IMG/VR virus record: IMGVR_UViG_3300045988_012994
Coordinates: 1-27,164 of that record
Length of the DNA: 27,164 nt
From: a virus
Reading direction: 5' to 3' (one strand)
Made by a program: the position numbers and the translations under genes. Shown here in pieces: positions 2 to 25,230 of this stretch (position 1 is its first letter; each line of letters starts with the position of its first letter). The notes beneath the pieces were generated by a model. That model ran no database searches and had not been told where the DNA came from. It saw nothing but the letters and a program-made list of their open reading frames with translations.

Positions 2-454
2 TATGCTCAGACCCTCGAAAAAGGGTCATATAGCGTGATTATTGATTCTGTTAAGCATTTACGTACGAATAATCAGAATCGGCTTATGTGGTCATTAATC
101 AAGGAAATAAGTGAAAACGAAAACGCTAGTCATAACGATACATGGGATATGTATTGCGAATTCTTGAGAATGGCAAAAGCTTTATATACATATGTTTCAG
201 TTTTGAAAGATGGTGTTGATTCGTTGGCTCAAGCACATGGAGTTAGAGCGGTTCAAATATTGGGTACTGAGATAAGAGACAATGGAAATGAATTTGTAAA
301 TTGTAGATTGTTTCTAGGCTCATCACAAATGGACACAAAGCAAATGGGAGTCTTAATTGATTGCATACTAGATTATGCAGAACAATTAGGAATCAACACT
401 CAATACTATTTAGATAAAGGAATCAAGGTGGAAGAAAATAAAATTTGTAATTAA
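2..454 (+). CDS. NinB/Orf-family recombination mediator (5' end outside window)
   Basis: The frame is open from the first base of the window, so the GTG at 35 in the ORF track is probably internal. RTNNQNRLMWSLIKEIS and GSSQMDTKQMGVLIDCILDYAEQLGI resemble lambda NinB (RSLDQNRKLW...; STSRMRVGEFAELLELIQAFG). It lies next to RusA, as in lambdoid nin regions. Confidence 0.55.
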   Translation, partial: YAQTLEKGSYSVIIDSVKHLRTNNQNRLMWSLIKEISENENASHNDTWDMYCEFLRMAKALYTYVSVLKDGVDSLAQAHGVRAVQILGTEIRDNGNEFVNCRLFLGSSQMDTKQMGVLIDCILDYAEQLGINTQYYLDKGIKVEENKICN

Positions 455-815
455 AGGAAAACTAGATGGATTGAATGAATATATTAATGTTTGCAGAACA
501 AATCGTTACAAAGGAGCAGAAATGAAGAAAAAGAATGAGCGATTAGTTATGGCTTATATCTTACAGGCAGTAAACTTTGGCGAGGTTTATGAAGTTAAAA
601 AATACCCAATTAAATTAAATATTAATTGGTATGAACCGAATTCAAGGCGTGATATTGATAACGTAACATTTGCAACTAAATTCATTCAAGATTCATTAGT
701 TAGAACAGGAATACTTGAGGATGATTCAAGGAAATACATTAATCAAGTGAATCATTCAGTATTTACAGATAAACAAAATCCAAGAATAGAGGTAGAAATT
801 CTAGGGGGTGATTAG
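438..815 (+). CDS. rusA: RusA-family Holliday junction resolvase (proposed ATA start)
   Basis: RRDIDNVTFATKFIQDSLVRTGILEDDSRKYI is the RusA catalytic region. The N-terminus typical of Gram-positive RusA (KFVIKGKLDGLNEYINVCRTNRYKGAEMKK) lies upstream of the track's TTG at 471. The only start-like codon is ATA at 438, 5 nt after SD AAGGTGGA (425-432). Confidence 0.8.
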   Translation: MKFVIKGKLDGLNEYINVCRTNRYKGAEMKKKNERLVMAYILQAVNFGEVYEVKKYPIKLNINWYEPNSRRDIDNVTFATKFIQDSLVRTGILEDDSRKYINQVNHSVFTDKQNPRIEVEILGGD

Positions 816-816
816 A

Positions 817-1548
817 ATAGCAGAACTAAAGAAAAGCCTACAAAGTGGGTATACACACGTTAACAATGAAATATTTCACGATAGAGAACTATCCTATAAA
901 GCAAAAGGCTTGTTTTGCCAAATGTTAAGCCTTCCGGATAATTGGGACTTTAAGGAAAACAGTATTAAAGCATTAGCTACAGATGGAATATCAAGTGTTC
1001 GTTCCGGTTTAAAAGAATTAATGAATAAAGGATATTTAATTCGTGAACCTATTAGAGAAGGTAATTTAATTGTTGATTGGCAATATACATTAATAGACAA
1101 TCCTCGGAATTTAGAAAATCTAAAAATAGAAAATCTAAAAATAGAAAATCTAAAATTAGAAAATCTAAACCCTATTAAATTAAATAATAATTCAACTAAA
1201 AATGAATTAAATAAAAATAATATTAATGTATGTACGCACAAACATAAATACGGAGAATTTCAACACGTGTTACTTACAGATAAAGAACACACACACCTAT
1301 TAGATTTATATGGTGATTCATTAGATGAGCATATAAAGATATTAGATGAGTATATTGAAACATCCGGAAAGAAATACAAGAACCATTCATTAGTACTACA
1401 AAAGTGGGTACATGATGAATGGATGAAAAGAAATAAGAACAATCCTGTAAAACTTGATTCTAAATTCTATGTACAAGAAAGCAATCAATCGTATGCAGAT
1501 GTACAGAAAGAAATGGAACGAGTAAGGAAAGAAATATTAAGAGCGTAG
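817..1548 (+). CDS. Phage replisome organizer / DnaD-like HTH protein (ATA 817, or GTG 808)
   Basis: The N-terminal GYTHVNNEIFHDRELSYKAKGLFCQMLSLPDNWDF...GLKELMNKGYL is the HTH_36/replisome-organizer pattern. The C-terminal YGEFQHVLLTDKEH...LDEYIETSGKKYKNHSLVLQKWV is the conserved phage C-terminus. It contains 15-bp iterons. GTG 808 lies inside the SD GGGGGTGA (804-811), whereas ATA 817 is 5 nt downstream of it. Confidence 0.7.
   Translation: MAELKKSLQSGYTHVNNEIFHDRELSYKAKGLFCQMLSLPDNWDFKENSIKALATDGISSVRSGLKELMNKGYLIREPIREGNLIVDWQYTLIDNPRNLENLKIENLKIENLKLENLNPIKLNNNSTKNELNKNNINVCTHKHKYGEFQHVLLTDKEHTHLLDLYGDSLDEHIKILDEYIETSGKKYKNHSLVLQKWVHDEWMKRNKNNPVKLDSKFYVQESNQSYADVQKEMERVRKEILRA
1112..1170. 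repeat. Four tandem 15-bp direct repeats (TAGAAAATCTAAAAA-type iterons), putative origin of replication
   Basis: Units start at 1112, 1127, 1142 and 1157, with only 1-2 changes in the last two. They are translated as NLENLKIENLKIENLKLENL inside the organizer gene. Confidence 0.7.
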
Positions 1549-1555
1549 AAAGGGA

Positions 1556-3050: not shown

Positions 3051-3051
3051 T

Positions 3052-5952: not shown

Positions 5953-6427
5953 TGTAGCAGTAATAGCAGGACATCTAACAAAAGATGTCGAATTATCAAA
6001 AACACAAAATGGAAATAGCGTAGCAAAGTTTACGGTAGCAGTAAATGGATACAATGACACTACAGATTTTATTAATTGTGTGGCATGGAATAAATTGGCA
6101 GATATCGTAAATATGTATTGCAAGAAAGGTGATTTAGTTACAGTTGAAGGAAGAATCAGTGTTAGAAATTATGAGAACCAACAAGGACAAAGAATTTATA
6201 TCACTGAAGTTGTAGCTAGTAACGTACAATTACCGCCTAAAAACACTTCTAATGGGCAGAATTATAGTTCTAATGTAAATGCATATCAATATCCAAATCA
6301 AGCAAATAGCAACGCTTACGGCGTTCAAAACACATATACGCAACCAAGCTTAACACAACAAATTGCACAACAAGAATATAATGACGCAAGCAATTTCCAA
6401 ATTGCTTCAGATGATTTACCATTCTAG
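5945..6427 (+). CDS. ssb: Single-stranded DNA-binding protein
   Basis: OB-fold N-terminus (MINVAVIAGHLTKDVEL...FINCVAWNKLADIV...GDLVTVEGRI..RNYENQQGQRIYITEVV), a Gln/Asn/Tyr-rich linker and the acidic tail DDLPF. Confidence 0.92.
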   Translation: MINVAVIAGHLTKDVELSKTQNGNSVAKFTVAVNGYNDTTDFINCVAWNKLADIVNMYCKKGDLVTVEGRISVRNYENQQGQRIYITEVVASNVQLPPKNTSNGQNYSSNVNAYQYPNQANSNAYGVQNTYTQPSLTQQIAQQEYNDASNFQIASDDLPF

Positions 6428-6439
6428 GAGGTGGCACTA

Positions 6440-6634
6440 ATAGAAATGAATTACGAAGAAAGGATTAAAGAGTTAATTTCTAAAAACAATAGACTAGGAA
6501 GGAAGAATATTGAATTGGAGCAGACTTTAAAAGAAAGAAATGTAACAATTCATACTCAAGCTAAAGAAATCAAGAAATTAAGAAGTGAAGTTGGCGAATT
6601 AAAGGATAGATTGTATAAGGTATACAGTTCATGA
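6440..6634 (+). CDS. Hypothetical coiled-coil protein (start ATA 6440 or ATG 6446)
   Basis: SD GGAGG at 6427-6431 is 8 nt from ATA 6440 and 14 nt from ATG 6446. GTG 6431 overlaps the SD itself. Confidence 0.55.
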   Translation: MEMNYEERIKELISKNNRLGRKNIELEQTLKERNVTIHTQAKEIKKLRSEVGELKDRLYKVYSS

Positions 6635-6957
6635 GTACATATGAAGATATTAAGAGACACTTCTTGTGTGAATGCCAATCGTACACATATTATGAGCAAA
6701 AGATAGCAGAGCTACAAAGGGATGAAGCAATTTATCCTTTAAAAGCCGAGCTATTCTTGGCTCATGCAGATTATGCAAGAAGAATGAACTATGTAAAAGA
6801 AAAATTAAGCCAACTTGATGATACAACTCGAACAATGATTGAGTATAGATATATAAAAGGATTCAGTGCAGAAAAGACATCTAATATTGTAGGTTATGCA
6901 AGAGAAGAAATCCCAAGAAAAATAAATAAGAACTTAAAGAAAGTGCTCACAATGTGA
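6631..6957 (+). CDS. Phage late-gene transcriptional regulator (ArpU/RinA-like, sigma region-4-like HTH)
   Basis: The C-terminal TRTMIEYRYIKGFSAEKTSNIVGYAREEIPRKINKNLKKV resembles a sigma-70 region 4 HTH. It is the last gene of the early block, directly upstream of the packaging/structural genes. Confidence 0.6.
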   Translation: MSTYEDIKRHFLCECQSYTYYEQKIAELQRDEAIYPLKAELFLAHADYARRMNYVKEKLSQLDDTTRTMIEYRYIKGFSAEKTSNIVGYAREEIPRKINKNLKKVLTM

Positions 6958-6966
6958 GCATTTTTT
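6944..6966 (+). terminator. Rho-independent terminator after the regulator gene
   Basis: Stem TGCTCAC/GTGAGCA (6944-6950 / 6954-6960), loop AAT, then TTTTTT (6961-6966). The stop codon 6955-6957 lies inside the stem. Confidence 0.7.
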
Positions 6967-6983: not shown

Positions 6984-7059
6984 AGCAGGATAGAGCAGTA
7001 GTAGCTCACTAGTCTTATTAGCTAGAGGTCGAATGGTGCAAATCCTTCTCCTGCAACCA
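6984..7059 (+). tRNA. Initiator-like tRNA with anticodon UAU (reads AUA), CCA encoded
   Basis: Manual cloverleaf: AGCAGGA TA GAGC AGTAGTA GCTC A CTAGT C-T-TAT-T-A GCTAG AGGTC GAA(T)GG TGCAAAT CCTTC TCCTGCA A CCA. This gives 6 acceptor pairs plus unpaired A1 x A72, a 4-bp D stem, a 5-bp anticodon stem and a 5-bp T stem with one bulged T. The D arm, variable loop and 3' end closely resemble bacterial tRNA-fMet. Confidence 0.7.
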
Positions 7060-7139: not shown

Positions 7140-7164
7140 ACCGAGCGTTTGTCTCGGTTCTTTT
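7140..7164 (+). terminator. Rho-independent terminator closing the tRNA unit
   Basis: Stem ACCGAG/CTCGGT (7140-7145 / 7153-7158), 7-nt loop, then TCTTTT. Confidence 0.65.
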
Positions 7165-7182
7165 AATAATAAGGAGGAGAAT

Positions 7183-7764
7183 ATGAATATTGTTGAAAAA
7201 AGATTAAATGAGCTAAAGCCTTATGAGAATAACCCTAGAATCAATGATGGAGCAGTGAAATTTGTTAAAAATTCTATTGAAGAATTCGGTTTCAAAGTGC
7301 CTATTGTTATTGATAAAAATGGAGTGATTGTTGCAGGTCATACACGATATAAAGCTAGTCAAGAATTAGGCTTAGAAACTGTTCCTTGCGTGGTTGCAGA
7401 TGATTTAACAGATGAGCAAGTAAAAGCATTTAGAATTGCAGATAATAAAACGGCAGAAAAAGCGTCGTGGGATTTAGACGCATTAAAGACAGAAATGGAA
7501 GAGCTAGAAGAAATTGACGGAATCGATATGAGAGATTTCGGATTCGGTGATTTTGAAATTAGTGCATTAACTGAGGATATGGAAGCAGAAGGATATGACA
7601 ACGAGCTTATGGACGCATTTAGCGAACATTCAGAAGATATGTTAAAAAAGCAACGTGTAATCATTACATATGAAACAGAGGAAGAACAACTATTCTTAGA
7701 GAAACTCTTGCAGGTAACTGAATTGAAAGTATGTTACGACATCAAGGAATTAATGAATGAATAA
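7183..7764 (+). CDS. ParB-like N-terminal (ParB/Srx nuclease/NTPase) domain protein
   Basis: LKPYENNPRINDGAVKFVKNSIEEFGFKVPIVIDKNGVIVAGHTRYKASQELGLETVPCVV is the ParBc motif set (YENNPR ... GHTR). The tail is acidic. Strong SD AAGGAGGAG. Confidence 0.8.
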   Translation: MNIVEKRLNELKPYENNPRINDGAVKFVKNSIEEFGFKVPIVIDKNGVIVAGHTRYKASQELGLETVPCVVADDLTDEQVKAFRIADNKTAEKASWDLDALKTEMEELEEIDGIDMRDFGFGDFEISALTEDMEAEGYDNELMDAFSEHSEDMLKKQRVIITYETEEEQLFLEKLLQVTELKVCYDIKELMNE

Positions 7765-8524
7765 CATCTATTATGCAATAGCTAGTTACCATAGACCAAA
7801 ATGTAAAACGTATCACGCATTAAAAGAATGTGGAATTGAAGATGAAAGAATCGTTGTGTGTTTAAATGATTCAAATGATTATAAAGCTTACAGACAGAAT
7901 TTAGGAAGCCGAGCGAGAATCATTTTAAGAGAAGGGATGTATGTATCATTCAATAGGAATACATGCCTAAATCAATTTGAAGATGGTTCAAAAATACTAT
8001 TGTTAGATGATGATATAAGGAGCTTCCAAAAATGGTATGAATGTTCTGAAACTAAATGTGGACGTTTAATAAATTTGACAAATAACTTTGAGCGTGAAGT
8101 TAAAAAGATATTTGATTTTATGCAAAAAAACGGAATCAATTATGCCGGTGTAATATCAACCGACAATAAAATGAACATTTCAAAGCTAAATAGGCTAGGT
8201 GAACAATATTCATATAACACGCTTTTACAAGGCGGATTTAATTTCATTATAAAAAATAACAAGATTGTATATGATGAAAAAATGAAAATCTTAGATGATT
8301 ATGAGTTATGCCTTAGATTAATAAGACAAGGACAAATTTTAGCAAGAAATAACACTATTATTGCAAATAAAGCAAGAATGGGAAAAGAAAAAGGTGGATA
8401 TTATGAAATATATAAAACTACAAACCTACAAAAGCAATATCTAAATTTATTGAAAAGAAAATATGATGACATGGTAACAATTAGAGGAAATAACTTAATT
8501 ATTAAAAGAAAATGGAGGATATAA
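7757..8524 (+). CDS. Hypothetical protein, possible GT-A-fold (DxD) glycosyltransferase-like enzyme
   Basis: N-terminal beta-strand/Rossmann-like IYYAIASYHRP followed by SKILLLDDDI (a DxD-type motif). No family was recognised with certainty. Confidence 0.35.
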   Translation: MNNIYYAIASYHRPKCKTYHALKECGIEDERIVVCLNDSNDYKAYRQNLGSRARIILREGMYVSFNRNTCLNQFEDGSKILLLDDDIRSFQKWYECSETKCGRLINLTNNFEREVKKIFDFMQKNGINYAGVISTDNKMNISKLNRLGEQYSYNTLLQGGFNFIIKNNKIVYDEKMKILDDYELCLRLIRQGQILARNNTIIANKARMGKEKGGYYEIYKTTNLQKQYLNLLKRKYDDMVTIRGNNLIIKRKWRI

Positions 8525-8525
8525 G

Positions 8526-9833
8526 GTGAATAAAATCAGTGAGACATATCAATCACCAAGATGGACAGGAGAAATCGCAGATTGCTCATTACCGGTAACA
8601 TTTGACACATATTCCAACTGTTCATTTGGATGTGTTTATTGTTTTAGCCAATATCAAAGAGGTATTGGTGCAAGTAAAGAAGCATATCTTAATAAAGATG
8701 TGAAATGTATCAATGTTGAGAAATGCAAAAAGATTTTCAGTGGAGAAGATACAAAATCACAATTCTATAAATACATTAAAGACAGAAGACCTATTCAATA
8801 TGGTGGATTATCAGACCAATTCGACGGATACGAAAAGAAATATGGTAAAACCTATGAAATGCTCAAGTATATGAAATCTATTAACTATCCTATCTGTTTT
8901 AGTACGAAATCGGCATGGGTATTTAACGACCCTAAATATCAAGAATTATTCAAAGGTGCAGACAATTGGAATGTTAAGTTTAGTATCATCACACTAGATG
9001 AAGAGGACGCAAGAAAAATCGAAGTAGGTGTTCCAAGTCCAAGAAAAAGACTTGAAGCAATGAAAAAATATACTGAACTATCAAAAGGTGGTGCAACTTT
9101 AAGATTGCGTCCGTTTATTGTAGGAGTATCAGATAAAACCTATCTAGATTTAATTAGAGAAGCCAAAAAGGCAGGAGCAACGGCAGTTACTACGGAGTTC
9201 TTTTGCTTAGAAATGAGGTCTATTAAACAAGCTAAGGAGCATTATGATGTGATTAGTGAATGTGCAGGGTTTGATATTGTAGATTTCTATAGAAAACATT
9301 CAAATGGAAGTGGATATTTAAGACTTAACAGAAAAGTAAAGACTAAATACATTCAAAAGATGAAAGAGCTATGTGATGAATTAGGTATGCGATTCTATGT
9401 ATCAGACGCACACTTTAAAGAATGCTCGAATAACTGTTGTTGTTGCGCATTAGACAAGAACTGGGATTACTCAAGAGGAAACTTTAGTGGAGCTTTACAA
9501 ATTGCAAAGAAACATGGAAGAGTACATTGGAAAGATATTGAAAAGGATATGTACTTCTTAGACTTTGAGCGTAACAAAGCGGTTGTTTTTAATACAAATA
9601 CATCAGAAACTAGAGCAAAATATGCAGGAATGACAATGAAAGATTATCTGCATTATTTATGGAATTCACCAAAAGCAGGACAATCACCTTATAAGATTTT
9701 TGAAAAGGTTCTAAAGCCTGTGGGATTTGATGAAAATAATGACATCATTTACGAATATGATAATTCAGTAACATTCTTAAAAAGAACAGAGGAGATTACA
9801 GAACTTGAAACAGAAGAAGCAAGACATGTCTAG
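8526..9833 (+). CDS. Radical SAM enzyme, SPL / COG1533 'DNA repair photolyase'-like
   Basis: CSFGCVYCF is a CxxxCxxC 4Fe-4S/SAM motif about 30 residues from the N-terminus, preceded by W.GE...C.LP..FDTY. TIM-barrel-like spacing follows (GGLSDQFD, ICFSTKS, RLRPFIVGVSD). GTG start lies 6 nt after TGGAGGA. Confidence 0.75.
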   Translation: MNKISETYQSPRWTGEIADCSLPVTFDTYSNCSFGCVYCFSQYQRGIGASKEAYLNKDVKCINVEKCKKIFSGEDTKSQFYKYIKDRRPIQYGGLSDQFDGYEKKYGKTYEMLKYMKSINYPICFSTKSAWVFNDPKYQELFKGADNWNVKFSIITLDEEDARKIEVGVPSPRKRLEAMKKYTELSKGGATLRLRPFIVGVSDKTYLDLIREAKKAGATAVTTEFFCLEMRSIKQAKEHYDVISECAGFDIVDFYRKHSNGSGYLRLNRKVKTKYIQKMKELCDELGMRFYVSDAHFKECSNNCCCCALDKNWDYSRGNFSGALQIAKKHGRVHWKDIEKDMYFLDFERNKAVVFNTNTSETRAKYAGMTMKDYLHYLWNSPKAGQSPYKIFEKVLKPVGFDENNDIIYEYDNSVTFLKRTEEITELETEEARHV

Positions 9834-9975
9834 AGAAGAACATTTACGCCAAATGAAAAGCGTTGAAGAAGAATTAGAAAACACTACATCAGAATATAGA
9901 AAAAGAGATTTAAGAAAAAGATTACAAAGGCTTAAAAAGCAATTGAATCAATATGATTGTTATAGGGGGTATTAA
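9826..9975 (+). CDS. Hypothetical small coiled-coil protein (49 aa)
   Basis: ATG 9826 overlaps the radical-SAM stop and the ORF fills the gap before TerS. Below the ORF-track cutoff. Confidence 0.4.
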   Translation: MSREEHLRQMKSVEEELENTTSEYRKRDLRKRLQRLKKQLNQYDCYRGY

Positions 9976-9976
9976 A

Positions 9977-10318
9977 ATAGCAGAGAAACACGCAGGAGGA
10001 CGTCCAAGAGTAAAGATTGATTATGAAGCGGTTGAAAAGCTTGCTTCTATTGGATGTACGCAAGAAGAAATTGCAGATTTTCTAGGATGTTCGGTAAGAA
10101 CATTATTAAGAAATGGAAAGTTTTGTCAGACATATAAAAAAGGTATAAGCCACTCAAAAAGAAGCTTAAGACGTATGCAATTCGATAAGGCTTCAAAAGG
10201 AAATACGACCATGCTTATTTGGTTAGGTAAACAAATGCTTGGACAGTCCGAAAAGGTTGAACAAACAATGACACATGAGATTGAGGACTTAACACCTTTG
10301 GCAGATTTATTAAAATGA
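9977..10318 (+). CDS. terS: Terminase small subunit (proposed ATA start; alternative ATG 9953)
   Basis: AEKHAGGRPRVKIDYEAVEKLASIGCTQEEIADFLGCSVRTLLRN is a typical TerS N-terminal HTH. ATA 9977 lies 7 nt after AGGGGG (9964-9969) and 1 nt after the upstream stop. ATG 9953 has no SD and lies inside the upstream ORF. Confidence 0.75.
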   Translation: MAEKHAGGRPRVKIDYEAVEKLASIGCTQEEIADFLGCSVRTLLRNGKFCQTYKKGISHSKRSLRRMQFDKASKGNTTMLIWLGKQMLGQSEKVEQTMTHEIEDLTPLADLLK

Positions 10319-11652: not shown

Positions 11653-11655
11653 GAA

Positions 11656-13059: not shown

Positions 13060-13865
13060 CAACTACATATTTTCCATTCGTCTCAAGAAATGGCGATAGA
13101 TTAGTACTATATGACGCTTTCAGAAGATTATTCTCAAGCTACTTTACAAATGGCGTATTCATAGATGATTCTAGTTCAGACCATTTAAGAGTTGAGAAAG
13201 CTCAAGGCTTAACCTTAACAGTTAAAGCAGGACGAGCAAATATTAACGGAGCATTCTATTGGCAAAGGGATGACGAAACCATCACATTAGAAAAGAATAG
13301 CGCTACTAAAAGCTACAATATTATTCTTAGATTGAATGATAATGACGCATACAGAAACATTACCTTAGTAGCAAGTGATATCAATGATGGAATCACAAGA
13401 AGTGATTCTATTTACGATTTAGTATTAGCTACGGTAACAGTAACAGGCAATTCGAACGAAGTTAAAGGCTCAGATATTACTGATACAAGATTAGATTCAA
13501 CACGTTGTGGAGCAGTTACAAGCGCTATTAAGAGTGTACAATCGTTGGATTTATTCACTCAAGTAACGGAGCTATTCAAAGAAATTAAGGCTCAGAATGA
13601 ATCTGAAATGAATGCAAATAGAACAGAGTTCAATGATTGGTTTGAAACTGTAAAAGATACGTTAGACGCAAATACGGCAGGAAAGCTATCGAACAGAATT
13701 TCCAATATTGAAAAGATGATTATGGAGAATCATTTCACTACGATTCTATTAACAGAAGATGGAACATTAGTAGATGAGAATGGTCATGAGATTCTAGCAG
13801 ATTGGGCGTATGAAGTTGATGAAGGTGAAGTAGGTAAAGATTGGACTTACAAGGTGAAATCATGA
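13056..13865 (+). CDS. Tail-fibre / receptor-binding-protein-like structural protein (proposed ATA start)
   Basis: The frame is open for 276 nt upstream of the track start (TTG 13332), with no ATG/GTG/TTG. ATA 13056 overlaps the portal TAG (ATAG) and lies 9 nt after GGAGAGGGGGA. N-terminal TTYFPFVSRNGDRLVLYDAFRRLFSSYFTNGV...AGRANINGAFY...ITDTRLDSTRCG resembles fibre/RBP shoulder domains of Gram-positive phages. Confidence 0.6.
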   Translation: MATTYFPFVSRNGDRLVLYDAFRRLFSSYFTNGVFIDDSSSDHLRVEKAQGLTLTVKAGRANINGAFYWQRDDETITLEKNSATKSYNIILRLNDNDAYRNITLVASDINDGITRSDSIYDLVLATVTVTGNSNEVKGSDITDTRLDSTRCGAVTSAIKSVQSLDLFTQVTELFKEIKAQNESEMNANRTEFNDWFETVKDTLDANTAGKLSNRISNIEKMIMENHFTTILLTEDGTLVDENGHEILADWAYEVDEGEVGKDWTYKVKS

Positions 13866-14499: not shown

Positions 14500-15108
14500 A
14501 TGGCTATTGAATATTTAGATAAGAGTGGACTAACGCTTTTAATTAGTAAAATTAAAGCTGCATTAGGTGGGAAAGTTGATGTTGTAAGTGGAAAAGGTTT
14601 ATCGACAAACGACTATACAAATGCAGAAAAACAAAAATTAAGTGGTATCGCAAGTGGTGCTCAAGTTAACGTGATTGAGTCTGTAAAGGTTAACGGTACA
14701 AAAGTTGAACCAAGCTCAAAAGCCGTAGATATTTCAGTGCCTACAAAAGTATCACAATTAACAAATGACAGTGGATTTCAAACATCTACGCAAGTAAATT
14801 CAATCGTTACAGGTAAAGGATATCAAACGCAATCACAAGTACAATCGTTGATTAATTCGGCAGTCGGTAATATTACATCTATTAGATATGAAAAGGTAAC
14901 GAGCTTACCTGCTACAGGTTCAAATGGTGTGATTTATTTGGTTGCACATTCACACGGAACGCAAGATATTTATGATGAGTATATTTGGCTTTCAGAGACA
15001 AAGACATATGAAAAGATTGGCAATACAGATATTGATTTATCGGCATATGTTAAGAAGTCAGAATTAACTGCGATTACTACAAATGATTTAAACACAATGT
15101 GGGGTTAG
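14500..15108 (+). CDS. Fibre-like protein (GLSTNDYT..EK.KL motif)
   Basis: Strong SD AGGAGGA. The N-terminal MAIEYLDKSGLTLLISKIKAAL and KGLSTNDYTNAEKQKLSGI are typical of phage tail/head fibre proteins. Confidence 0.6.
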   Translation: MAIEYLDKSGLTLLISKIKAALGGKVDVVSGKGLSTNDYTNAEKQKLSGIASGAQVNVIESVKVNGTKVEPSSKAVDISVPTKVSQLTNDSGFQTSTQVNSIVTGKGYQTQSQVQSLINSAVGNITSIRYEKVTSLPATGSNGVIYLVAHSHGTQDIYDEYIWLSETKTYEKIGNTDIDLSAYVKKSELTAITTNDLNTMWG

Positions 15109-15111: not shown

Positions 15112-15357
15112 ATGGCTTTCGTATTCAAAGACAAAGCTTCTATTCAGTGGCTTGTCTCGAAAATAAAGTCTGTAACCACATCACATAACGCATTGAATCA
15201 AATGGTTATGAATAACCACTTTACCACAAATCTAAACGCAACAAGTGCTCAAGATTTAGTGGATGAAAAAGGAAATACAATCTTAGCCGATTGGTCTTAT
15301 GAAGTAGCAAGTGGAGAAGTTGGTAAGGATTGGAAATATAAAATCAAGGAGGAATAA
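15112..15357 (+). CDS. Small protein duplicating the C-terminal module of the 13056 ORF
   Basis: NNHFTTNL...LVDEKGNTILADWSYEVASGEVGKDWKYKIKEE compares with ENHFTTIL...LVDENGHEILADWAYEVDEGEVGKDWTYKVKS. Confidence 0.6.
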   Translation: MAFVFKDKASIQWLVSKIKSVTTSHNALNQMVMNNHFTTNLNATSAQDLVDEKGNTILADWSYEVASGEVGKDWKYKIKEE

Positions 15358-15358
15358 C

Positions 15359-16252
15359 ATGCCAGGAAAACAAGTAACAGAATTAGACGCATTGCCTAGC
15401 TTTACCGATACAAGCTTATTGCCTGTGCATAATGGTGCAGGATTGAAAAAAGGCTTATTATCGCAACTAGCTAATTATTTAGGAAAAAAATTCAGTAATC
15501 CGAATTTATTGATTAATGCGGATTTTAAAATCAATCAAAGAGGTGCTACAAGCTACGAACAACAAGGTTATTCAGTAGATAGATGGAAGATTTGGAATGT
15601 TACGGTTACACCAAGCACAAGTGGAGGAATTACTGTAAAGAGCGATAAATACTCAGATACCGGAAATATTTTGCAATACTTAGAAAATGCGACGGAGGGC
15701 GATTCTACATTATCGTGTTATGTAACGTCTGTAAGTGGAACAGTGACAATGGTAGCAGATGATGATTCACAAGTAATATTGAAACAAGGATTAAATGTCT
15801 TACATATAAGTAAGAGTACAAAATCGTTTAAAATCTTTTTAAATCGAGGAACTAGCATAACGCTTAAATGGGTCAAATTGGAGCAAGGTAAAGTAGCTAC
15901 GGAATTTATTGCTCCAAATTATGCAGAAGAAATTTTGAAGTGTCAAAGATTCTATGTAGTCCTAGAAAGTTCATTAGCCGGCTATGGAGCTAATAACGCT
16001 ATATATATTCCTTTTTCAAGGGGCGTTTATATGCGAAGTAGCCGAAATGTAATCTTTAAAGGGAATAACAAGCAAACTTTTCTTAGAGTTAACGGAACAG
16101 GTAAACAAATTTCGTTTAGCACAACCAATGGTTATGCAAATAATCAATATGTACGTGTATATACAAACCCTGTAGATACATCATTAAACAATACTGCAAT
16201 TGGTATAGATTTAAACGATGTGACAATAAGTGTAGACGCAGAGATTTATTAG
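15359..16252 (+). CDS. Tail-fibre / receptor-binding-like protein
   Basis: ATG 15359 lies 6 nt after AAGGAGGA. It has an N-terminal QVTELDALPSFTDTSLLPVHNG anchor-like motif and a C-terminal domain containing ...EEILKCQRFY..., as seen in Gram-positive phage fibre tips. Confidence 0.55.
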   Translation: MPGKQVTELDALPSFTDTSLLPVHNGAGLKKGLLSQLANYLGKKFSNPNLLINADFKINQRGATSYEQQGYSVDRWKIWNVTVTPSTSGGITVKSDKYSDTGNILQYLENATEGDSTLSCYVTSVSGTVTMVADDDSQVILKQGLNVLHISKSTKSFKIFLNRGTSITLKWVKLEQGKVATEFIAPNYAEEILKCQRFYVVLESSLAGYGANNAIYIPFSRGVYMRSSRNVIFKGNNKQTFLRVNGTGKQISFSTTNGYANNQYVRVYTNPVDTSLNNTAIGIDLNDVTISVDAEIY

Positions 16253-18051: not shown

Positions 18052-18636
18052 ATGAAAAATATTATTGAAATTTTAAAAGAATCAAACATTGAATTAACCA
18101 AAGAACAAGAGGAATCAATTACAAAGCTAGTAAATGATAACTACAAGACAATTGCAGAGTTCGATAAGCAGAAAGATAAGCTATCTTTAGCAGAAAACAA
18201 TGCAAAGGAAATTCAAACAAAGTTTGATAATTTCAAGAAAAGCTATGATGGGGTTGATGTAGAAGAATTGAAAAATAAAATCAATACATTGACGAATGAT
18301 ATTGATACTCAAAAGACTACATACGAAACTCAAATTAGCAAAATGAATCTTGATTCTGTATTAAGCGCAAAAGCTAAAGAATACGGATGTAAAGATTTCG
18401 AATTAGCAAAATCACAATTCAACTATGATGATTTACTAAATTCAAAAGACCAAACAAATGACATTGACAAAGCTTTCAAAACTTTGAAAGAGAATAAGCC
18501 AATCTTGTTTGAAGAAAAACAAAATGAGCCTAGTGTTAAAGGTAATATTGTTGGAAGCAGTGGGCAAGGAGATAACCCAAACGCCGAAGATTTATTGTTA
18601 CGACAGGCAATGGGCTTAACTACAGAAAAGAAATAA
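18052..18636 (+). CDS. Scaffolding protein (phage GP20-like)
   Basis: Highly helical Lys/Glu/Asp-rich 194-aa protein directly upstream of the capsid gene. Strong SD AGGAGGG. Confidence 0.7.
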   Translation: MKNIIEILKESNIELTKEQEESITKLVNDNYKTIAEFDKQKDKLSLAENNAKEIQTKFDNFKKSYDGVDVEELKNKINTLTNDIDTQKTTYETQISKMNLDSVLSAKAKEYGCKDFELAKSQFNYDDLLNSKDQTNDIDKAFKTLKENKPILFEEKQNEPSVKGNIVGSSGQGDNPNAEDLLLRQAMGLTTEKK

Positions 18637-18650
18637 GGAGGATTTAATTA

Positions 18651-19520
18651 ATACCAAATGAAATTGCATTAGCTAAAACGTATGTCTCAAATTTGGATGA
18701 GGTATATAAGTTAGCTTCAGTCACAGGTGATTTAAACGCAAGCGCTACAATGGTACGAGCAGGAGCAAACGCAAAAGAAATCATCTACCCACAAATTTCT
18801 GTTAAAGGTTTAGGAAACTACGATAGAAACAGTGGTTATACAGGTAACTCAGTTAAGTTAGAATGGAAAACTGCTACATTCGACTATGATAGAGGAACTA
18901 AAATCTCAGTTGATACACAAGATAACGCAGAATCAATGAATATTGCATTCGGCATGGCAGGAGCGGAATTAATGCGTACAAAGGTTGCACCGGAAGCAGA
19001 CGCTTACACATTCGCTAAGATTGCCGGCACAACAGGAATCACAAAGGTTTCAGAAGATTATACAGGTGCAGAAGAGTTCTTGAGTGCATTATTAACGGCT
19101 ATCACTAAAATGGATGAGGATGAAGTTCCTAGCGAACAACGTATCTTATATTCAACACCAACATTATTAAATAGCGTTAAAGCATTAGATACATACAAAT
19201 CACGTGAAGCTTTACAAGGATTTGCAAAAATTGTTCCTGTACCTTCAACACGATTCTATACAAAAATTAAATTGTTGAGTGGAAAAGATACAGAGTTAGA
19301 GGGCGGATACGAAAAGGCAGAGGATGGACACGCAATCAACTTCTTAATTGTTCACAAACCTGCCGTAATGAAATGGGATAAACACACTGTTTCAAATGTG
19401 ATTCCTGCAAGCAATAACATCGAATCAGATTCAGATGTATTGAAATATCGTAAATATGGAATCGTTGATGTATACCAAAATAAGGTAGCAGGTATTTACT
19501 TATCTGCTAGTGCTAAGTAA
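18651..19520 (+). CDS. Major capsid protein (proposed ATA start)
   Basis: Position after the scaffold, ~290 aa. ATA 18651 lies 9 nt after GGAGG (18637-18641) and is the second codon after the in-frame stop at 18645-18647. The extension PNEIALAKTYVSN completes the conserved ...Y...LDEVYK.AS.T.DL N-terminus. The track start is TTG 18693. Confidence 0.8.
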   Translation: MPNEIALAKTYVSNLDEVYKLASVTGDLNASATMVRAGANAKEIIYPQISVKGLGNYDRNSGYTGNSVKLEWKTATFDYDRGTKISVDTQDNAESMNIAFGMAGAELMRTKVAPEADAYTFAKIAGTTGITKVSEDYTGAEEFLSALLTAITKMDEDEVPSEQRILYSTPTLLNSVKALDTYKSREALQGFAKIVPVPSTRFYTKIKLLSGKDTELEGGYEKAEDGHAINFLIVHKPAVMKWDKHTVSNVIPASNNIESDSDVLKYRKYGIVDVYQNKVAGIYLSASAK

Positions 19521-19992: not shown

Positions 19993-20408
19993 CAGGTTTC
20001 TTTGAAGATTCAATCACGCTTGTAAATCACTACTATGATACATTGACAAGAGAAGATAGGTTTCAAGCTTATATACTTGATAAATGTATGTGGAGACAAT
20101 CAACAGTTAGGACTGCAAATGGTAATATTCTGAGCATAGCCACATCCACAAATATTACCATTCTATATCGTGAGGGATATGTTGAACCTTACGCATATGC
20201 AAAACTTTCAAATGATGAGAAACAAAAGCACTTCACATTAAATACAGATAAGACAGATTTTGTATTCTTTGGAGAGGTAAAAGAAGATTTATCTAGTATT
20301 AAATCAATCAACGAAGCAAAAAAGAAATACAAATGGACAACCGTTCAAAGCGTAACAGATTGTACGAATGTCGATATGTTGAAGCATTGGGAGGTTGTCG
20401 GTCAATAG
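19989..20408 (+). CDS. Head-tail joining protein (putative)
   Basis: ATGA overlap at 19989-19992. Call based on synteny. Confidence 0.5.
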   Translation: MTGFFEDSITLVNHYYDTLTREDRFQAYILDKCMWRQSTVRTANGNILSIATSTNITILYREGYVEPYAYAKLSNDEKQKHFTLNTDKTDFVFFGEVKEDLSSIKSINEAKKKYKWTTVQSVTDCTNVDMLKHWEVVGQ

Positions 20409-20767
20409 GAATGAAAGTCAAACTTGATGTTGAATCAATTCCCCAAATTAAACAATCAAGAGGACTTGAAGAACGTGGACGAGTGCAACAAATGATTGAT
20501 TCTGAAGTTATTAGGCTTATGACCCCTTATACGCCTAGAGACACAGGAGCATTAATTAACTCGGCTACACGATTAACACAAATTGGTAGTGGATTAGTAA
20601 AACAAGGTGGACCAAGTGCACCTTATGCTAGACGGTGGTATTACAACAAAGAGAATGCTCATTTCGTTGGCGGTAAATCAGACCATTGGTTTAAAAAATC
20701 TATGCGAAATGGTGGAGCAGAGACAATCTTAAAGAAAGCGCAAAAAATGATAGGAGGTAGTGAATGA
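20405..20767 (+). CDS. HK97 gp10-like head-tail joining protein (start ATA 20405 or ATG 20411)
   Basis: MTPYTPRDTGALINSAT matches the gp10-family P.DTG.L..S motif. GGAGG at 20390-20394 is 10 nt from ATA 20405 (ATAG overlap with the upstream TAG) and 16 nt from ATG 20411. Confidence 0.6.
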   Translation: MGMKVKLDVESIPQIKQSRGLEERGRVQQMIDSEVIRLMTPYTPRDTGALINSATRLTQIGSGLVKQGGPSAPYARRWYYNKENAHFVGGKSDHWFKKSMRNGGAETILKKAQKMIGGSE

Positions 20768-21183
20768 CAGTATCAAAAGCGTTGATTCAATGGCTTTATG
20801 GCTACGGAAATATACAGATAGATGAACGTATTGAAACGGATGTTTTAGCGCAACAAGCTATCTCTTATGCGTTGTATAAAGAACCTAACGCAATTGTAAA
20901 TACATACATTGATGGTTCTCAAATGCGTACTGAATACTACACGTTTCTAGCACGTAGGAATACACAAATTGAATCAGAAAGACAAGATAACAATGTTTTT
21001 CTAGAAGAATTAGAAAAATGGATTGACGAAAAGAATTTAAGCGGAGAATCACCACAACTAGACGGAAACAGACATTGTGATGATGTTTCCGTTTCAAGTG
21101 GTTTATATCTATACACAAATGAGGATAATCAAGCAGTATATGCGTTGACTATTCAAATTAAATACAGAAAGGAGCTTAATTAA
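20764..21183 (+). CDS. Tail completion / head-tail joining protein (putative)
   Basis: ATGA overlap. SD GGAGGT. Call based on synteny. Confidence 0.5.
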   Translation: MTVSKALIQWLYGYGNIQIDERIETDVLAQQAISYALYKEPNAIVNTYIDGSQMRTEYYTFLARRNTQIESERQDNNVFLEELEKWIDEKNLSGESPQLDGNRHCDDVSVSSGLYLYTNEDNQAVYALTIQIKYRKELN

Positions 21184-21689
21184 TAGCAACTCAAGGAACT
21201 GAAGTAACTACAGGACAGACAGTCAAGAAGTATATGATTGGATTGTTCTTACAAATGGGAGAAGGTTACAAGCGAATTAAAAAGTCTACAACTTTAGATA
21301 TTTCATTCAATAGTGAAACTGAAACGTATGACTTTATCGCAGATAAGAATCCAACAGAATCATTAAAGAGTTATTCACCTCAGATTTCGCAAGATTTAAC
21401 AATGATTAAAGGCGAAGATGACTTTGAATACATTTACGAACAAATGATGAAATCCGTGCCAAACAATGAAGAAGTAAATACAAAAGCTTTACTTGTATTT
21501 ATGTTTGACGGAGACAAAACTAAAGGCTATAAAGCGTGGGAAGTTGACGCTAAATTAATTTTCGACACATTAAGTGGTGTTGATTCAAAAATCAACTTCA
21601 ACATTAACTTTGCAAGCGACATTCGTGTCGGTACTGCAAGGGTAGCAGATGGAGCAGTAACATTTACAGAAGGCACATCAGAAGTATAA
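21183..21689 (+). CDS. Major tail protein (proposed ATA start)
   Basis: Position immediately before the chaperone and TMP. ATA 21183 lies 8 nt after AAAGGAG (21168-21174) and overlaps the upstream TAA (TAATA). The first canonical start, ATG 21234, has no SD and would drop ATQGTEVTTGQTVKKY. Confidence 0.7.
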   Translation: MATQGTEVTTGQTVKKYMIGLFLQMGEGYKRIKKSTTLDISFNSETETYDFIADKNPTESLKSYSPQISQDLTMIKGEDDFEYIYEQMMKSVPNNEEVNTKALLVFMFDGDKTKGYKAWEVDAKLIFDTLSGVDSKINFNINFASDIRVGTARVADGAVTFTEGTSEV

Positions 21690-21707
21690 AGAAAGAAGAG
21701 GTAAATC

Positions 21708-22070: not shown

Positions 22071-22630
22071 TTGATTTACGCATAAAAGGCTTGCCAAATA
22101 GCATACAATCGCTAGATGGCGAGCCTATTTTATTAAATACAGACTTTCGATTATGGATAAGATTCTATGAAGAATTAGAGCGATTCAACAATCATGTTGT
22201 TGATGAAGTAGATTGTTCTTATTTATTTGTAGATGAACCACCTATCATAGATAAGCATATTTTAAAAGAGTTAGAGCAATTCCTATACAACCCTTCTAGT
22301 ACGCCTAGAAGTGATTCTACAGGCGTTAAGACATTAGATTATGTACAAGATGGTGAATATATTTATTCGGCTTTTATGCAACTTTACGGCATTGATTTAA
22401 CTGAATGCGATATGCACTGGCATAAGTTTCTAGCATTATCAAACAATATTGTAGGTGATTCAACTTTATGGGGATATGCAAAGAGTGTTAGAGGGTATGA
22501 AAAGCCTTCAAAGAATGATACACAGGATAAAGCATATCAAAGAGCAAAAGAAGCATGGTCTTTCCCAATCGAGTTAACAATAGAGGAACAAGAAATGAAA
22601 GATGAATTCGATTCATATTTTGATGTTTAG
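22067..22630 (+). CDS. Phage Gp15-family protein (A118-type tail module)
   Basis: LLNTDFRLWIRFYEELE and overall size match the Gp15 family found just upstream of the TMP in Listeria A118-like phages. ATGA overlap. Confidence 0.6.
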   Translation: MIDLRIKGLPNSIQSLDGEPILLNTDFRLWIRFYEELERFNNHVVDEVDCSYLFVDEPPIIDKHILKELEQFLYNPSSTPRSDSTGVKTLDYVQDGEYIYSAFMQLYGIDLTECDMHWHKFLALSNNIVGDSTLWGYAKSVRGYEKPSKNDTQDKAYQRAKEAWSFPIELTIEEQEMKDEFDSYFDV

Positions 22631-22650
22631 AAAAGGAGGTGGCAAATTGA

Positions 22651-25230
22651 ATATCAGACGGAACATTAAAGTTTGATACAAAGATTGATACAAGTGGTCT
22701 AGAGAATGGAATGAAATCCGTTCATGAAGTCACAAGTGGAGCTACAAATGCTATCAAAGAAACTTCAAAAGCAATCGACAAGTTAGGTTCTGATGGTTCA
22801 AAAGCACCACCAAAGATTAAAGATAAACTTAAAGATTTAAACGAAGAGCAAAAGAATACACAAACAGAAACGCAAGAAACAGGTTCTAAATTTGATGTAT
22901 TTAAAAAAGTAGGAAACAGTGCCTTAGAATCAATTCAAGGTGGATTTGATGGACTATTAGGAAAGATTCAGAATATCAGTCCGGAAGCTACTGCAATCAC
23001 TGAAACCCTAACAGGATTAGGCGTAGGAGGTGTTGTTGGTGTTACTGCCATAGCAGGAGCTATCGGTGGAATGGCATTAGCAATTAAGACAGGTGTTAAC
23101 CAAGCTACAGAATTAGATGACGCTATGGCTAAATTTCAAGCTCAAACAGGTGCTTCAAGCAATGAAATGAGCAAATTTAAAAACATTGCTCGTGATGTTT
23201 GGTCAAACAATTTCGGTGAAGATGTTTCAGATGTTGCCGATATGATGGGCAGAGTCAAGCAACAAATGCAAGGCATAAGTGATGTTGACCTAAAGAACGT
23301 GACCGAGGATTTATTAACTTTAAGAGATACATTCGATATGGATGAGAATGAAACTCTTAGAGGTGCTCAACAATTAATGAAGCAATTCGGAATCACTTCT
23401 CAAGAAGCTTTCGACCTTATGGCTACAGGTGCTCAGAATGGTTTAAACAAATCAGATGAGTTAGGCGACAACATTTCAGAATACTCCGGTAAATTCGCAC
23501 AAGCAGGATATTCGGCAGATGAATATTTCCAATTAATGCAGAATGGATTAGATGGTGGAGCTTATAACCTTGATAAAGTTAATGACGCAATCAACGAAGT
23601 TACCACACGGTTAGTTGATGGAACTATTGAAGGAGCTTTAGATAGTTTTGATACCAAAACACAAGATGTATTTAAGGCATGGCAAGAAGGAAGAGCAACT
23701 CAAAAAGATGTTGTGAATGCGATTGTAGAAGATATTTCAAAGACTACAAATGAACAAGAAAAGTTGAATAAATCTGCAACGGCTTTCGGCACAATGGGAG
23801 AAGATTTCAACGCCGGATTCATTCAGTCCTTAACGACAGTAGGGAATAAATATAAAGACGTAGAAGGGGCAATGGATAAAGTTAAAGATATCGCAAATGG
23901 TGGCTTAAAGAACGCTTTAAGTGGCTTAGGGCGTACATTTCTTGATTCATTTACTCCAATAGGCGAACTTATTACTCCTATTCTTGCAGGTATCATTGGA
24001 TTGATTACAGTAGCTATACAAAGTATTCAACAAGGATTTGCTAAAGTTGGTGATGTAATTTCAAATGTATTAAGCAAGATTGATACAAGTGGAATTACAG
24101 AATTGACAAGTCAAGTTTCAGAGGTGTTAGCTCCTGCTTTTGATGAAGTTAGAAAAGCGATTGACGAAATGAAAGTTGCTCTTGAACCTATTGCAAAAGA
24201 AATCTTAAGTAAAATAGGTAACGCAATTCAAAATGTTGTTAACCAAGCTCAAAAGATTCTTAGCGTTGTAGGACCACCGATTCTAGCAATCATTAAGAAG
24301 ATTATTCAAACAGTTATCGGTATGACTCCTGTAATAACATCTATCCTTCAAGTAGTTGGAAGTGTGGTAAGTGGAATCATTTCATTTATAACTATGGTTG
24401 TAACATATGTAGGAACGTCTATTGCAACAATACTAGGATTTATCATGCCTATTGTTCAAATTGTAGCTACAATTGTAGCGAATATTTGGTCTGTAATATT
24501 AACGGTTGCTCAGAATATTTGGAGTAAGGTTAGTGAAGTAGTTACTGCGATTATTGGATTCGTAAGCAATTTATTTAAGACGGTTTCGGATATCATAAAC
24601 AATATTTGGAGCAAGATTCAAGATACAATGAACAGAGTCGGAGATAAAGTTAAAGGCGTTATTGACAATATCAATAAATATTTCAATAATATCAAATCTA
24701 CGGTTTCTGATGTATTCAATGGTATTTGGTCTAAAGTTCAAGGTGTAATGGATAATGTAGGGAATAAAATTTCAAATGTTCTACAAGGAATACAGAATTC
24801 ATGGAGCGGTTTAAAAGGATTTGTAAGTGGTGTATTTGGTGGAATTGAAGGAGCAGTACAATCGTTAGTCGGAAGTGTAAAAGGCTTCGTAAATGGCGTT
24901 ATAGGTGGCATTAATGGCGCTATCGGTATCATCAATAAGATTCCCGGTGTACACATTGGAAGAATCCCTAGGCTAGAGCGTGGTGGTGTATTAAAACGTG
25001 GTCAAATTGGCTTGCTAGAAGGTAATGGTGCAGAAGCAGTCGTACCATTAGAAAAAAATAAAGCGTGGATTCGTGCCGTCGCTAAAGATATGGCTCAAAT
25101 CATGCCTAGCGTAACAACAAATAACAACGGACAGACTATCAACTTCTACAATAAAGTTCAAAGTCCGGATGAAATTGCTAGAATGTTACGTATGCAAGCA
25201 AGATATGGATATGGAGGTGTAGTTCAATAG
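22651..25230 (+). CDS. Tape measure protein (proposed ATA start)
   Basis: 859 aa with a Gly/Ala-rich TM-like core, NIWSK-type repeats and a C-terminal GGVL.RGQIGLLEGNGAEAVVPL. ATA 22651 is the first codon after the in-frame TGA (22648-22650) and lies 11 nt after GGAGG (22635-22639). The extension SDGTLKFDTKIDTSGLENG is a typical TMP N-terminus. Confidence 0.88.
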   Translation: MSDGTLKFDTKIDTSGLENGMKSVHEVTSGATNAIKETSKAIDKLGSDGSKAPPKIKDKLKDLNEEQKNTQTETQETGSKFDVFKKVGNSALESIQGGFDGLLGKIQNISPEATAITETLTGLGVGGVVGVTAIAGAIGGMALAIKTGVNQATELDDAMAKFQAQTGASSNEMSKFKNIARDVWSNNFGEDVSDVADMMGRVKQQMQGISDVDLKNVTEDLLTLRDTFDMDENETLRGAQQLMKQFGITSQEAFDLMATGAQNGLNKSDELGDNISEYSGKFAQAGYSADEYFQLMQNGLDGGAYNLDKVNDAINEVTTRLVDGTIEGALDSFDTKTQDVFKAWQEGRATQKDVVNAIVEDISKTTNEQEKLNKSATAFGTMGEDFNAGFIQSLTTVGNKYKDVEGAMDKVKDIANGGLKNALSGLGRTFLDSFTPIGELITPILAGIIGLITVAIQSIQQGFAKVGDVISNVLSKIDTSGITELTSQVSEVLAPAFDEVRKAIDEMKVALEPIAKEILSKIGNAIQNVVNQAQKILSVVGPPILAIIKKIIQTVIGMTPVITSILQVVGSVVSGIISFITMVVTYVGTSIATILGFIMPIVQIVATIVANIWSVILTVAQNIWSKVSEVVTAIIGFVSNLFKTVSDIINNIWSKIQDTMNRVGDKVKGVIDNINKYFNNIKSTVSDVFNGIWSKVQGVMDNVGNKISNVLQGIQNSWSGLKGFVSGVFGGIEGAVQSLVGSVKGFVNGVIGGINGAIGIINKIPGVHIGRIPRLERGGVLKRGQIGLLEGNGAEAVVPLEKNKAWIRAVAKDMAQIMPSVTTNNNGQTINFYNKVQSPDEIARMLRMQARYGYGGVVQ

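Follow-up and report, generated by a model that had tools for sequence, protein, structure and literature searches.

Conserved ATA start codons and an initiator-like tRNA with a UAU anticodon in a group of human-gut phages

Genome organisation and relatives

The stretch of DNA considered here, positions 1 to 27,164 of the IMG/VR virus record IMGVR_UViG_3300045988_012994 (hereafter the window, 27,164 nucleotides (nt) in full), belongs to a siphovirus-type phage and carries its modules for replication, packaging, head and tail, with genes on the plus strand throughout and a GC content of 30-36%. Our subject is a set of genes in it that have an ATA codon where a start codon is expected, together with a tRNA that bears the matching anticodon, UAU, and resembles bacterial initiator tRNAs. 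A preliminary description, made from the sequence alone, had placed such starts behind Shine-Dalgarno (SD) motifs at eleven sites and had proposed the tRNA as their decoder; all eleven codons and the SD motifs named for them are present where it put them. They head about 11 of the 45 genes in the window and are listed below with the tRNA and with two genes that begin with ATG in the window and with ATA in relatives. Haplotype counts refer to the related contigs described after the list.

425-815, plus strand: RusA-like resolvase; SD AAGGTGGA at 425-432, ATA at 438, stop codon at 813-815; matches PHROG 1682 from residue 2; ATA kept in 21/21 haplotypes, with A at position -1
804-1548, plus strand: replication initiator/organizer; SD GGGGGTGAT at 804-812 with a GTG (808) inside it, ATA at 817; ATA kept in 11/11 haplotypes although the SD varies
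6426-6634, plus strand: small coiled-coil open reading frame (ORF); SD AGGAGGTG at 6426-6433, ATA at 6440, an ATG (6446) two codons on; ATA kept in 49/49 haplotypes although the spacer varies
6984-7059, plus strand: tRNA(UAU), initiator-derived; A1xA72, G2:C71, C3:G70, A11:U24, A73, CCA encoded
9965-10318, plus strand: small terminase (TerS); SD GGGGGT at 9965-9970, ATA at 9977; ATA in 20/20 haplotypes
11643-13059, plus strand: portal; SD AAGGAGGT at 11643-11650, ATA at 11656; ATA in 41/41 haplotypes
13036-13865, plus strand: head protein, phrog_1220; SD GGAGAGGGGGA at 13036-13046, ATA at 13056 within the portal's TAG; ATA in 41/41 haplotypes
14500-15108, plus strand: structural-module gene, phrog_24103; ATG start in the window; PHROG match from residue 1
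15359-16252, plus strand: fibre-like gene; ATG start in the window and in most relatives
18635-19520, plus strand: major capsid; SD AAGGAGG at 18635-18641, ATA at 18651; ATA in 27/27 haplotypes
20390-20767, plus strand: minor head or head-tail protein (gp10-like); SD GGAGGT at 20390-20395, ATA at 20405; matches PHROG 556 from residue 2; ATA kept in 29/29 haplotypes, while the nearby ATG (20411) gives way to ATC, ATA or ATT in relatives
21168-21689, plus strand: putative major tail (tube) protein; SD AAAGGAG at 21168-21174, ATA at 21183 overlapping the upstream TAA; ATA in 26 haplotypes, ATG in 1
22633-25230, plus strand: tape measure; SD AAAGGAGGTG at 22633-22642, ATA at 22651 as the first codon after an in-frame TGA; ATA in 25/25 haplotypes
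25213-26096, plus strand: distal tail protein (Dit); SD GGAGGTG at 25213-25219, ATA at 25227 overlapping the tape measure's TAG; ATA in 31/31 haplotypes

Relatives of the phage were gathered by a portal-based scan, which returned 38 viral contigs with portal proteins 97-99% identical from residue 1, and by later scans that added 31 loci and 28 metagenome contigs. The source of all related contigs is human-gut metagenomes. A complete relative of 39,026 bp, stitched from three loci, encodes an integrase, a CI-like repressor and a lysis module, as expected of a temperate phage. The structural region had no megablast match among GenBank phages, a search for the host with the portal in 185,579 species genomes returned no prophage copy, and sequence searches of the PDB with the tail tube and capsid gave no match.

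ATA codons as conserved start sites

In the seven genes whose ATA start had been regarded as unambiguous (RusA, portal, head protein, capsid, tail tube, tape measure and Dit), ATA is the sole candidate start backed by an SD: the first ATG, GTG or TTG lies 33-276 nt further downstream and has no SD of its own, and the nearest in-frame stop upstream is separated from the ATA by 0-3 codons in five of the genes, by 8 in RusA and by 16 in Dit. The four additional sites, put forward because ATA is better placed relative to the SD than the nearby canonical codon (817, 6440, 9977 and 20405), are likewise conserved in relatives, with the reservation that 6440 stays ambiguous owing to the ATG at 6446. 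The same signal emerged when all 61 sense triplets were scored for 'orphan SDs'. A site qualified if it had a strong SD at a distance of 4-11 nt, an in-frame stop no more than 10 codons before it, an open frame of 80 codons or more after it and no canonical start in the vicinity. The count was 14 for ATG and 6 for ATA, and the other triplets that scored were mere neighbours of the ATA sites.

Genes with an ATA start adjoin their upstream neighbours closely, at distances of -17 to +20 nt. At 13056, 20405 and 25227 the start overlaps the upstream TAG as ATAG, and at 21183 it overlaps the upstream TAA as TAATA, which suggests translational coupling through an ATA counterpart of the familiar ATGA overlap. 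In all, ATAG occurs at 8 of the 11 sites and ATAGCA at 4, where 7 and 5 had been counted before. Two gene labels also changed: the gene at 13056, earlier called fibre-like, matches a head-protein family, and the 'major tail' label at 21183 is based on gene order and is given here as putative. The expectation that standard callers would truncate such genes is borne out by a public annotation, in which the capsid has 275 amino acids, the tape measure 839 and Dit 187.

Among relatives, ATA is kept in every distinct haplotype (11-49 per site) at the 11 sites with a single exception, the tail-tube site 21183, where 1 of 29 haplotypes has ATG; around the conserved codon, the SD, the spacer and the second codon all vary. 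Two further sites move between ATA and ATG. At 14500, ATA is found in 15 of 18 haplotypes and ATG in 3, with A at -1 and G at +4 throughout, and at 15359 ATA is found in 2 of 30, solely in a subgroup that has A at -1. Among the relatives' haplotypes no start ATA has become ATT or ATC, and ATG is the sole exchange partner. By comparison, ATT variants occur at 37 of 136 internal ATA codons and ATC variants at 17; internal ATA drifts as an isoleucine codon should and thus keeps its normal meaning. Recoding of ATA as methionine was considered and ruled out, since internal ATA exchanges mainly with ATT, ATC and GTA. The ATA codons are conserved, selected start positions.

The stretches from each ATA up to the first canonical codon evolve as coding sequence. 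Variable sites in these extensions number 59, 35 and 174 at codon positions 1, 2 and 3 (chi-square p = 1.5e-27), and synonymous changes outnumber nonsynonymous ones by 217 to 117. The pattern holds in individual genes, with 27/15/72 variable sites by codon position in the 273-nt extension of the head protein and 14/8/50 in the 198-nt extension of Dit, and the portal extension likewise has a coding-type substitution pattern. Alignments with homologues, proposed earlier as a check, do include the extensions. Capsid residues 3-288 align with positions 3-294 of the 297 in PHROG 422, and PHROG matches begin at residue 3 of the head protein, 2 of RusA, 10 of the tail tube, 22 of the portal and 20 of Dit, in all cases ahead of the canonical codons. 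For the capsid gene of Eggerthella phage PMBT5, the annotated start aligns with residue 1 of the capsid, and in the endolysin of the complete relative the first ATG (residue 33) comes after both the beginning of the CHAP domain and its catalytic cysteine (residue 25). The nearest outgroups (capsid 52% and portal 43% identical) have SD-backed ATG or TTG codons at the homologous starts, the codon at the capsid and portal positions being ATG. To judge from substitution pattern and alignment together, the N-terminal extensions are translated.

Beyond the genes of the window, ATA heads a structural-module gene, a 195-residue protein without known function and the endolysin in relatives, and about 15-17 of roughly 70 genes in the complete relative start in this way. 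The integrase, the repressor and two further genes of its lysogeny module have canonical starts. ATA starts are confined to lytic-cycle genes: replication, packaging, head, tail and lysis. The start of a small early gene at 1556 is uncertain, as its start region is very variable in relatives, with ATG, ATA, ATT or GTA at the aligned position.

Sequence context of the ATA starts

The ATA starts differ from the canonical starts of the window in three respects. Firstly, the base at -1 is A at 11/11 ATA starts and at 17/34 canonical ones (p = 0.002), and this A precedes ATA in every haplotype as well as at all six sites of a divergent phage lineage described below. Experiments with A37 mutants of the bacterial initiator, tRNAfMet, have shown that tRNA position 37 pairs with the mRNA base at -1 (PMC10018350). 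Secondly, SD pairing is stronger, with a median of -12.6 kcal/mol for ATA starts against -9.75 kcal/mol for canonical starts (p = 0.00025), which fits an all-A:U codon-anticodon helix that is weak and in need of support. Thirdly, G is found at +4 at 8/11 ATA starts and 6/34 canonical starts (p = 0.0014), the second codons after ATA being mostly GCA, GAA, GGA or GAT; the three ATAG overlaps account for only part of this enrichment. Among the AUH codons only AUA serves as a start, which matches the U34 of the phage tRNA.

A tRNA of initiator descent

The tRNA named in the preliminary description is supported by the Rfam model RF00005, which matches at 6984-7056 (48.8 bits, E = 9e-8), with the CCA end extending to 7059. 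ARAGORN called no tRNA in the window, probably because the T stem is bulged. The molecule has an anticodon stem CUAGU/GCUAG with G30:C40, an anticodon loop CUUAUUA that places U at position 37, and a T loop UGCAAAU beside the bulged T stem.

Ten distinct variants of this tRNA, drawn from about 100 loci, were compared. Their cloverleaf positions are 99.5% paired and six pairs have changed on both sides, values reached in 0 of 500 shuffles; the compensatory changes sit in the acceptor and anticodon stems. Position 1:72 is never a Watson-Crick pair, being AxA in nine variants and CxA in variant 10, so the mismatch persists across different bases at position 1. Invariant in all variants are G2:C71, C3:G70, A73, A11:U24 and G30:C40, the last reported to be essential for initiator function (PMC5389676). 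The D stem GAGC/GCUC is also invariant and, among 18 verified Escherichia coli tRNAs, is common to the initiator only. Variants 3 and 10 are 77% identical to E. coli tRNAfMet (metZ) and no more than 70% identical to the other 17 (next-best 65-70%), with identities of about 0.54-0.66 to the isoleucine tRNAs ileV and ileX, and elongator tRNA-Met likewise below the initiator.

The anticodon loop is invariant too, and departs from any ordinary initiator: where CAU followed by A37 would be expected, all variants have UAU and the highly unusual U37. Nor does the molecule look like an elongator tRNA-Ile(UAU), given its 1x72 mismatch, A11:U24 and U37. The comparisons indicate a tRNA that is initiator by descent and by most defining features, and that is under structural selection.

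On either side of the tRNA lies a possible terminator, at the positions given below; no match to a sigma-70 promoter for the tRNA was found.

6938-6966, plus strand: terminator-like hairpin with U-run, directly upstream of the tRNA; -14.8 kcal/mol, z = -5.1
7140-7165, plus strand: terminator-like hairpin with T-run, downstream of the tRNA; weak by folding energy

Co-occurrence of tRNA and ATA starts across phages

A second lineage (contigs L057 and L088), with about 70% nucleotide identity in the large terminase gene, has a tRNA with the same CUUAUUA loop as the window's own lineage. It also has six ATA starts preceded by A, namely those of TerS, portal, capsid and three other genes, and several of these are the first codon after the upstream stop. 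Its TerS begins at an ATA directly following TGA, with the first canonical start 34-93 codons downstream, and the portal start of L088 is arranged as in the window. The tRNA(UAU) and ATA starts thus co-occur in two divergent lineages.

Streptococcus anginosus prophage Javan59 shows what the precursor may have looked like. Just upstream of its TerS gene, a location matching that in the window, it carries an unannotated initiator-like tRNA with the ordinary CAU anticodon and A37 (MK448817.1, 12001-12073), C1xA72 and A11:U24, which is also present in Javan74. This tRNA of prophages from a cultured host shares 78% identity with the divergent UAU tRNA and may plausibly represent its ancestor type. 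No orphan ATA starts were seen in Javan59; in the outgroup contigs no tRNA was found and canonical starts are used.

A genome scan with a relaxed tRNA pattern returned only seven initiator-like tRNAs whose anticodon is TAT, dispersed among unrelated, mostly GC-rich bacteria, and no ATA starts near any of them. Among the loci examined, L077 and L080-L083 (Arthrobacter, a Terracidiphilus metagenome-assembled genome, an Arsenophonus endosymbiont, a Collinsella metagenome-assembled genome and Roseobacter insulae) are ordinary-looking initiator genes with a TAT anticodon, full or nearly full G:C pairs and A37, and may be mutated copies, sequencing errors or real. Two viral contigs of 64% GC (L074, 4204-4280, and L076, 3022-3098) have an initiator-like UAU tRNA with A37 adjoining a 355-codon ORF; they were set aside because no SD-backed ATA starts were seen in them. 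Their tRNA may belong to an integration site or represent an independent case.

Decoding of the ATA starts

The explanation that we favour, at a probability of about 0.8 on the sequence evidence assembled here, is that the phage encodes an initiator tRNA that reads AUA. Such a tRNA would have arisen from a bacterial initiator by a change of anticodon from CAU to UAU and of position 37 from A to U. The features that it has kept (the 1x72 mismatch, G2:C71, C3:G70, A73, A11:U24 and G30:C40) would make it a substrate for formyltransferase, guide it to the ribosomal P site and keep it off EF-Tu. It would then bind 30S subunits placed by the unusually strong SD sequences, with its UAU anticodon pairing with the AUA start codon and U37 pairing with the invariant A at -1, to give a four-base-pair A-AUA:UAUU helix that may offset the weakness of an all-A:U duplex. 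Both the decoding of AUA by the phage tRNA and the fourth base pair are inferred. Formyl-isoleucine and formyl-methionine are the candidates for the amino acid inserted, and the candidate benefits are a channel private to the phage, such that lytic genes would go untranslated in the absence of the tRNA, control of timing, and independence from the host initiator.

Extending this reading, the phage may possess a natural orthogonal initiation system, in which a private tRNA(UAU, U37) and an A-AUA signal together ensure that the lytic gene set is efficiently translated only when the phage tRNA is present, a proposal to which we give slightly more credence than to its converse. If true, such a system would either gate the lytic programme in lysogens or free it from the host initiator pool and from defences that attack that pool, and phage proteins may begin with formyl-isoleucine instead of formyl-methionine.

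Several observations tell against a dedicated initiator of this kind. The published determinants for methionyl-tRNA formyltransferase are G2:C71, C3:G70, G4:C69 and A73, the enzyme being indifferent to the attached amino acid (PMC9976931); the phage tRNA has the first two and A73, and at 4:69 it has A:U, not G:C. The three consecutive G:C pairs at 29-31:39-41 are incomplete, with A:U or G:C at 29:41 and U.G or C:G at 31:39. With C34, a determinant for methionyl-tRNA synthetase, and A37 with its N6-threonylcarbamoyl modification (t6A), a determinant for isoleucyl-tRNA synthetase, both missing, efficient aminoacylation is not assured. The tRNA of the window lineage has a bulged T stem, G55 and no G18G19, and could be impaired; in the divergent lineage the T arm is normal. 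The early genes upstream of the tRNA, RusA and the organizer, also start at ATA, which argues against a simple late-gene switch.

In the one serious alternative, which we consider unlikely, the ATA codons are real starts read as near-cognate by the host initiator tRNA(CAU), assisted by very strong SDs and by translational coupling, and the phage tRNA is an elongator supplement for AUA isoleucine codons or has another role. In Staphylococcus aureus and Bacillus subtilis the host initiator can use AUA at 10-30% of AUG efficiency given an extended SD, as at the S. aureus AUA starts of infC, ccpN and citZ (about 10-30%); the host initiator might suffice for the phage as well, whose ATA starts carry significantly stronger SDs and in many cases overlap or abut an upstream stop. 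Internal AUA is fairly common, at 16 per 1000 codons, so an elongator would be useful, and the phage tRNA is without the full set of three G:C pairs. In E. coli, however, native tRNAfMet reads AUA at only 0.1-1% (PMC11744186), and the phage uses ATA on about a quarter of its genes, including those for its most abundant virion proteins, as against about 4 low-expression genes per S. aureus genome. Near-cognate reading also predicts tolerance of AUU and AUC, yet there are no such starts and no drift of start codons to ATT or ATC. The conserved 1x72 mismatch and A11:U24 are initiator hallmarks that disfavour use by EF-Tu; the invariant A at -1 fits U37 of the phage tRNA and not A37 of a normal initiator; and ATA starts are found only alongside the UAU tRNA, being absent where the CAU version is present and in outgroups where no tRNA was found.

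Far less probable is translation from the downstream TTG, GTG or ATG codons, the upstream frames being conserved for other reasons. Standard gene callers do pick those codons, but they have no SD, ATG 20411 is not conserved, and starting there would leave gaps of up to 272 nt in a packed operon; the upstream frames, moreover, are coding-type in their substitutions, align with family N-termini and in the endolysin hold the CHAP catalytic cysteine. We give equally little credit to mRNA editing, whereby the third base of AUA would become inosine and be read as AUG by the normal initiator. Bacterial A-to-I editing of mRNA by TadA is known, and the conserved A-AUA-G context could be a recognition motif; that context, however, is unlike the known TadA target loop, no deaminase was found among the window proteins, and the co-occurring initiator-type tRNA with UAU and U37 would be left unexplained.

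The idea that a true ATG was misread through sequencing, assembly or base modification, with a hypermodified C turning CATT into TATT at the starts and the CAT anticodon into TAT, is effectively refuted: whilst a putative DNA-hypermodification cluster adjoins the tRNA, and both the AATA starts (complement TATT) and the TATT of the anticodon loop would suit a CATT-to-TATT conversion, intact AATG (306 occurrences) and CATT (179) persist at counts above expectation, AATG is the sequence at 17 canonical starts, independent assemblies (dozens of contigs from different projects and assemblers) have ATA and not ATG at the same sites amid varying neighbouring bases, both ATA and ATG haplotypes exist at three sites, and tRNA position 37 differs from the CAU initiator by a change that is not C to T.

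Other features of the genomes

The putative hypermodification cluster lies directly downstream of the tRNA, at 7183-9833, and consists of three genes, one ParB-like (7183-7764), one for a TET-associated glycosyltransferase (PF20691, 7757-8524) and one with weak radical-SAM similarity (8526-9833). A search among the proteins of the window for a formyltransferase, deformylase, synthetase or tRNA nuclease found none, nor was any other translation-related protein identified there. In the structural module, the proteins encoded at 13056-13865 and 15112-15357 nearly share a C-terminal motif, ILADW(A/S)YEV..GEVGKDW(T/K)YK, and in both cases the SD and start of the next gene follow directly, in the manner of a repeated module; the C-terminus of the head protein (13056) also has a weak match to a tail-collar fibre family. 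In the complete relative (contig IMGVR_UViG_3300045988_094509) a Ser/Thr protein-kinase-like gene at 98-1039, on the minus strand, adjoins the integrase in the lysogeny module and is a possible moron or defence gene.

Comparison with known systems

In the literature searched, no natural precedent for an anticodon-switched initiator was found, only engineered mutants and a phage biocontainment design. Bacterial tRNAfMet, including phage-borne copies such as that of Javan59, shares with the phage tRNA the 1x72 mismatch, G2:C71, C3:G70, A73, A11:U24 and G30:C40. The phage tRNA differs in having UAU for CAU, U37 for A37, one or two of the three G:C pairs and A4:U69 for G4:C69, as well as, in the window lineage, an aberrant T arm and D loop. 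Elongator tRNA-Ile(UAU), known from lactic acid bacteria, Mycoplasma mobile and phage T4, has in common with it the UAU anticodon that reads AUA; in such elongators, however, 1:72 is paired, 11:24 is Y:R and position 37 is A (t6A), whereas the phage tRNA shows none of these features.

As regards start codons, cellular near-cognate AUA and AUU starts (infC, ccpN, citZ, cvfC1) likewise combine AUA with an extended or strong SD. Those starts are rare and are read by the normal initiator, and their effect is to lower expression for regulation, whereas in the phage AUA heads abundant proteins and a matching tRNA is present. The window shares the strong SDs of infC-type starts; their rarity, their restriction to low-expression regulatory genes and the interchangeability of AUU, AUA and AUC are not seen in it. 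The known quadruplet interaction between position 37 and -1 involves a natural A37:U(-1) pair with a modest preference (PMC10018350), of which the candidate phage pair, U37:A(-1), is the mirror image, with the A invariant at all ATA starts.

Engineered initiators with mutated anticodons (amber CUA and other non-AUG types, and phage biocontainment designs) shift initiation to the matching codon, so that genes with such a start come to depend on the special tRNA (PMC11744186; bioRxiv 10.1101/2024.07.29.605542). The principle is shared, but those are laboratory constructs; the phage system is natural, extends to about a quarter of the genes, relies on a sense codon and has in addition a compensating change at position 37 and -1. 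If the favoured explanation is true, it would be the first natural anticodon-switched initiator in the searched literature to make a sense codon a routine start, natural evidence that the initiator anticodon sets start-codon identity, and support for the debated fourth base pair between 37 and -1; an evolved orthogonal pair of start codon and initiator would also bear directly on synthetic biology and on designs for phage biocontainment. For annotation, the consequence is that in these common gut phages the genes for capsid, portal, tail, tape measure, Dit and endolysin are cut short or overlooked by standard callers.

The closest natural counterpart is stop-codon recoding in gut phages of genetic codes 15 and 4, in which suppressor tRNAs recode stop codons (bioRxiv 10.1101/2021.08.26.457843; PMC9523058). 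In both cases a phage tRNA alters codon reading, or would do so, the altered codon is concentrated in lytic or structural genes, and gene callers mis-annotate the result; the pairing of tRNA(UAU) with ATA starts follows the same pattern of a phage tRNA that matches an abnormally used codon enriched in lytic genes. Stop-codon recoding acts on stops, at termination and elongation, whereas the phage system would act at initiation, on a sense codon that still means isoleucine inside genes. Initiation would, if so, join stop-codon recoding among the steps of translation that phages rewire with tRNAs of their own.

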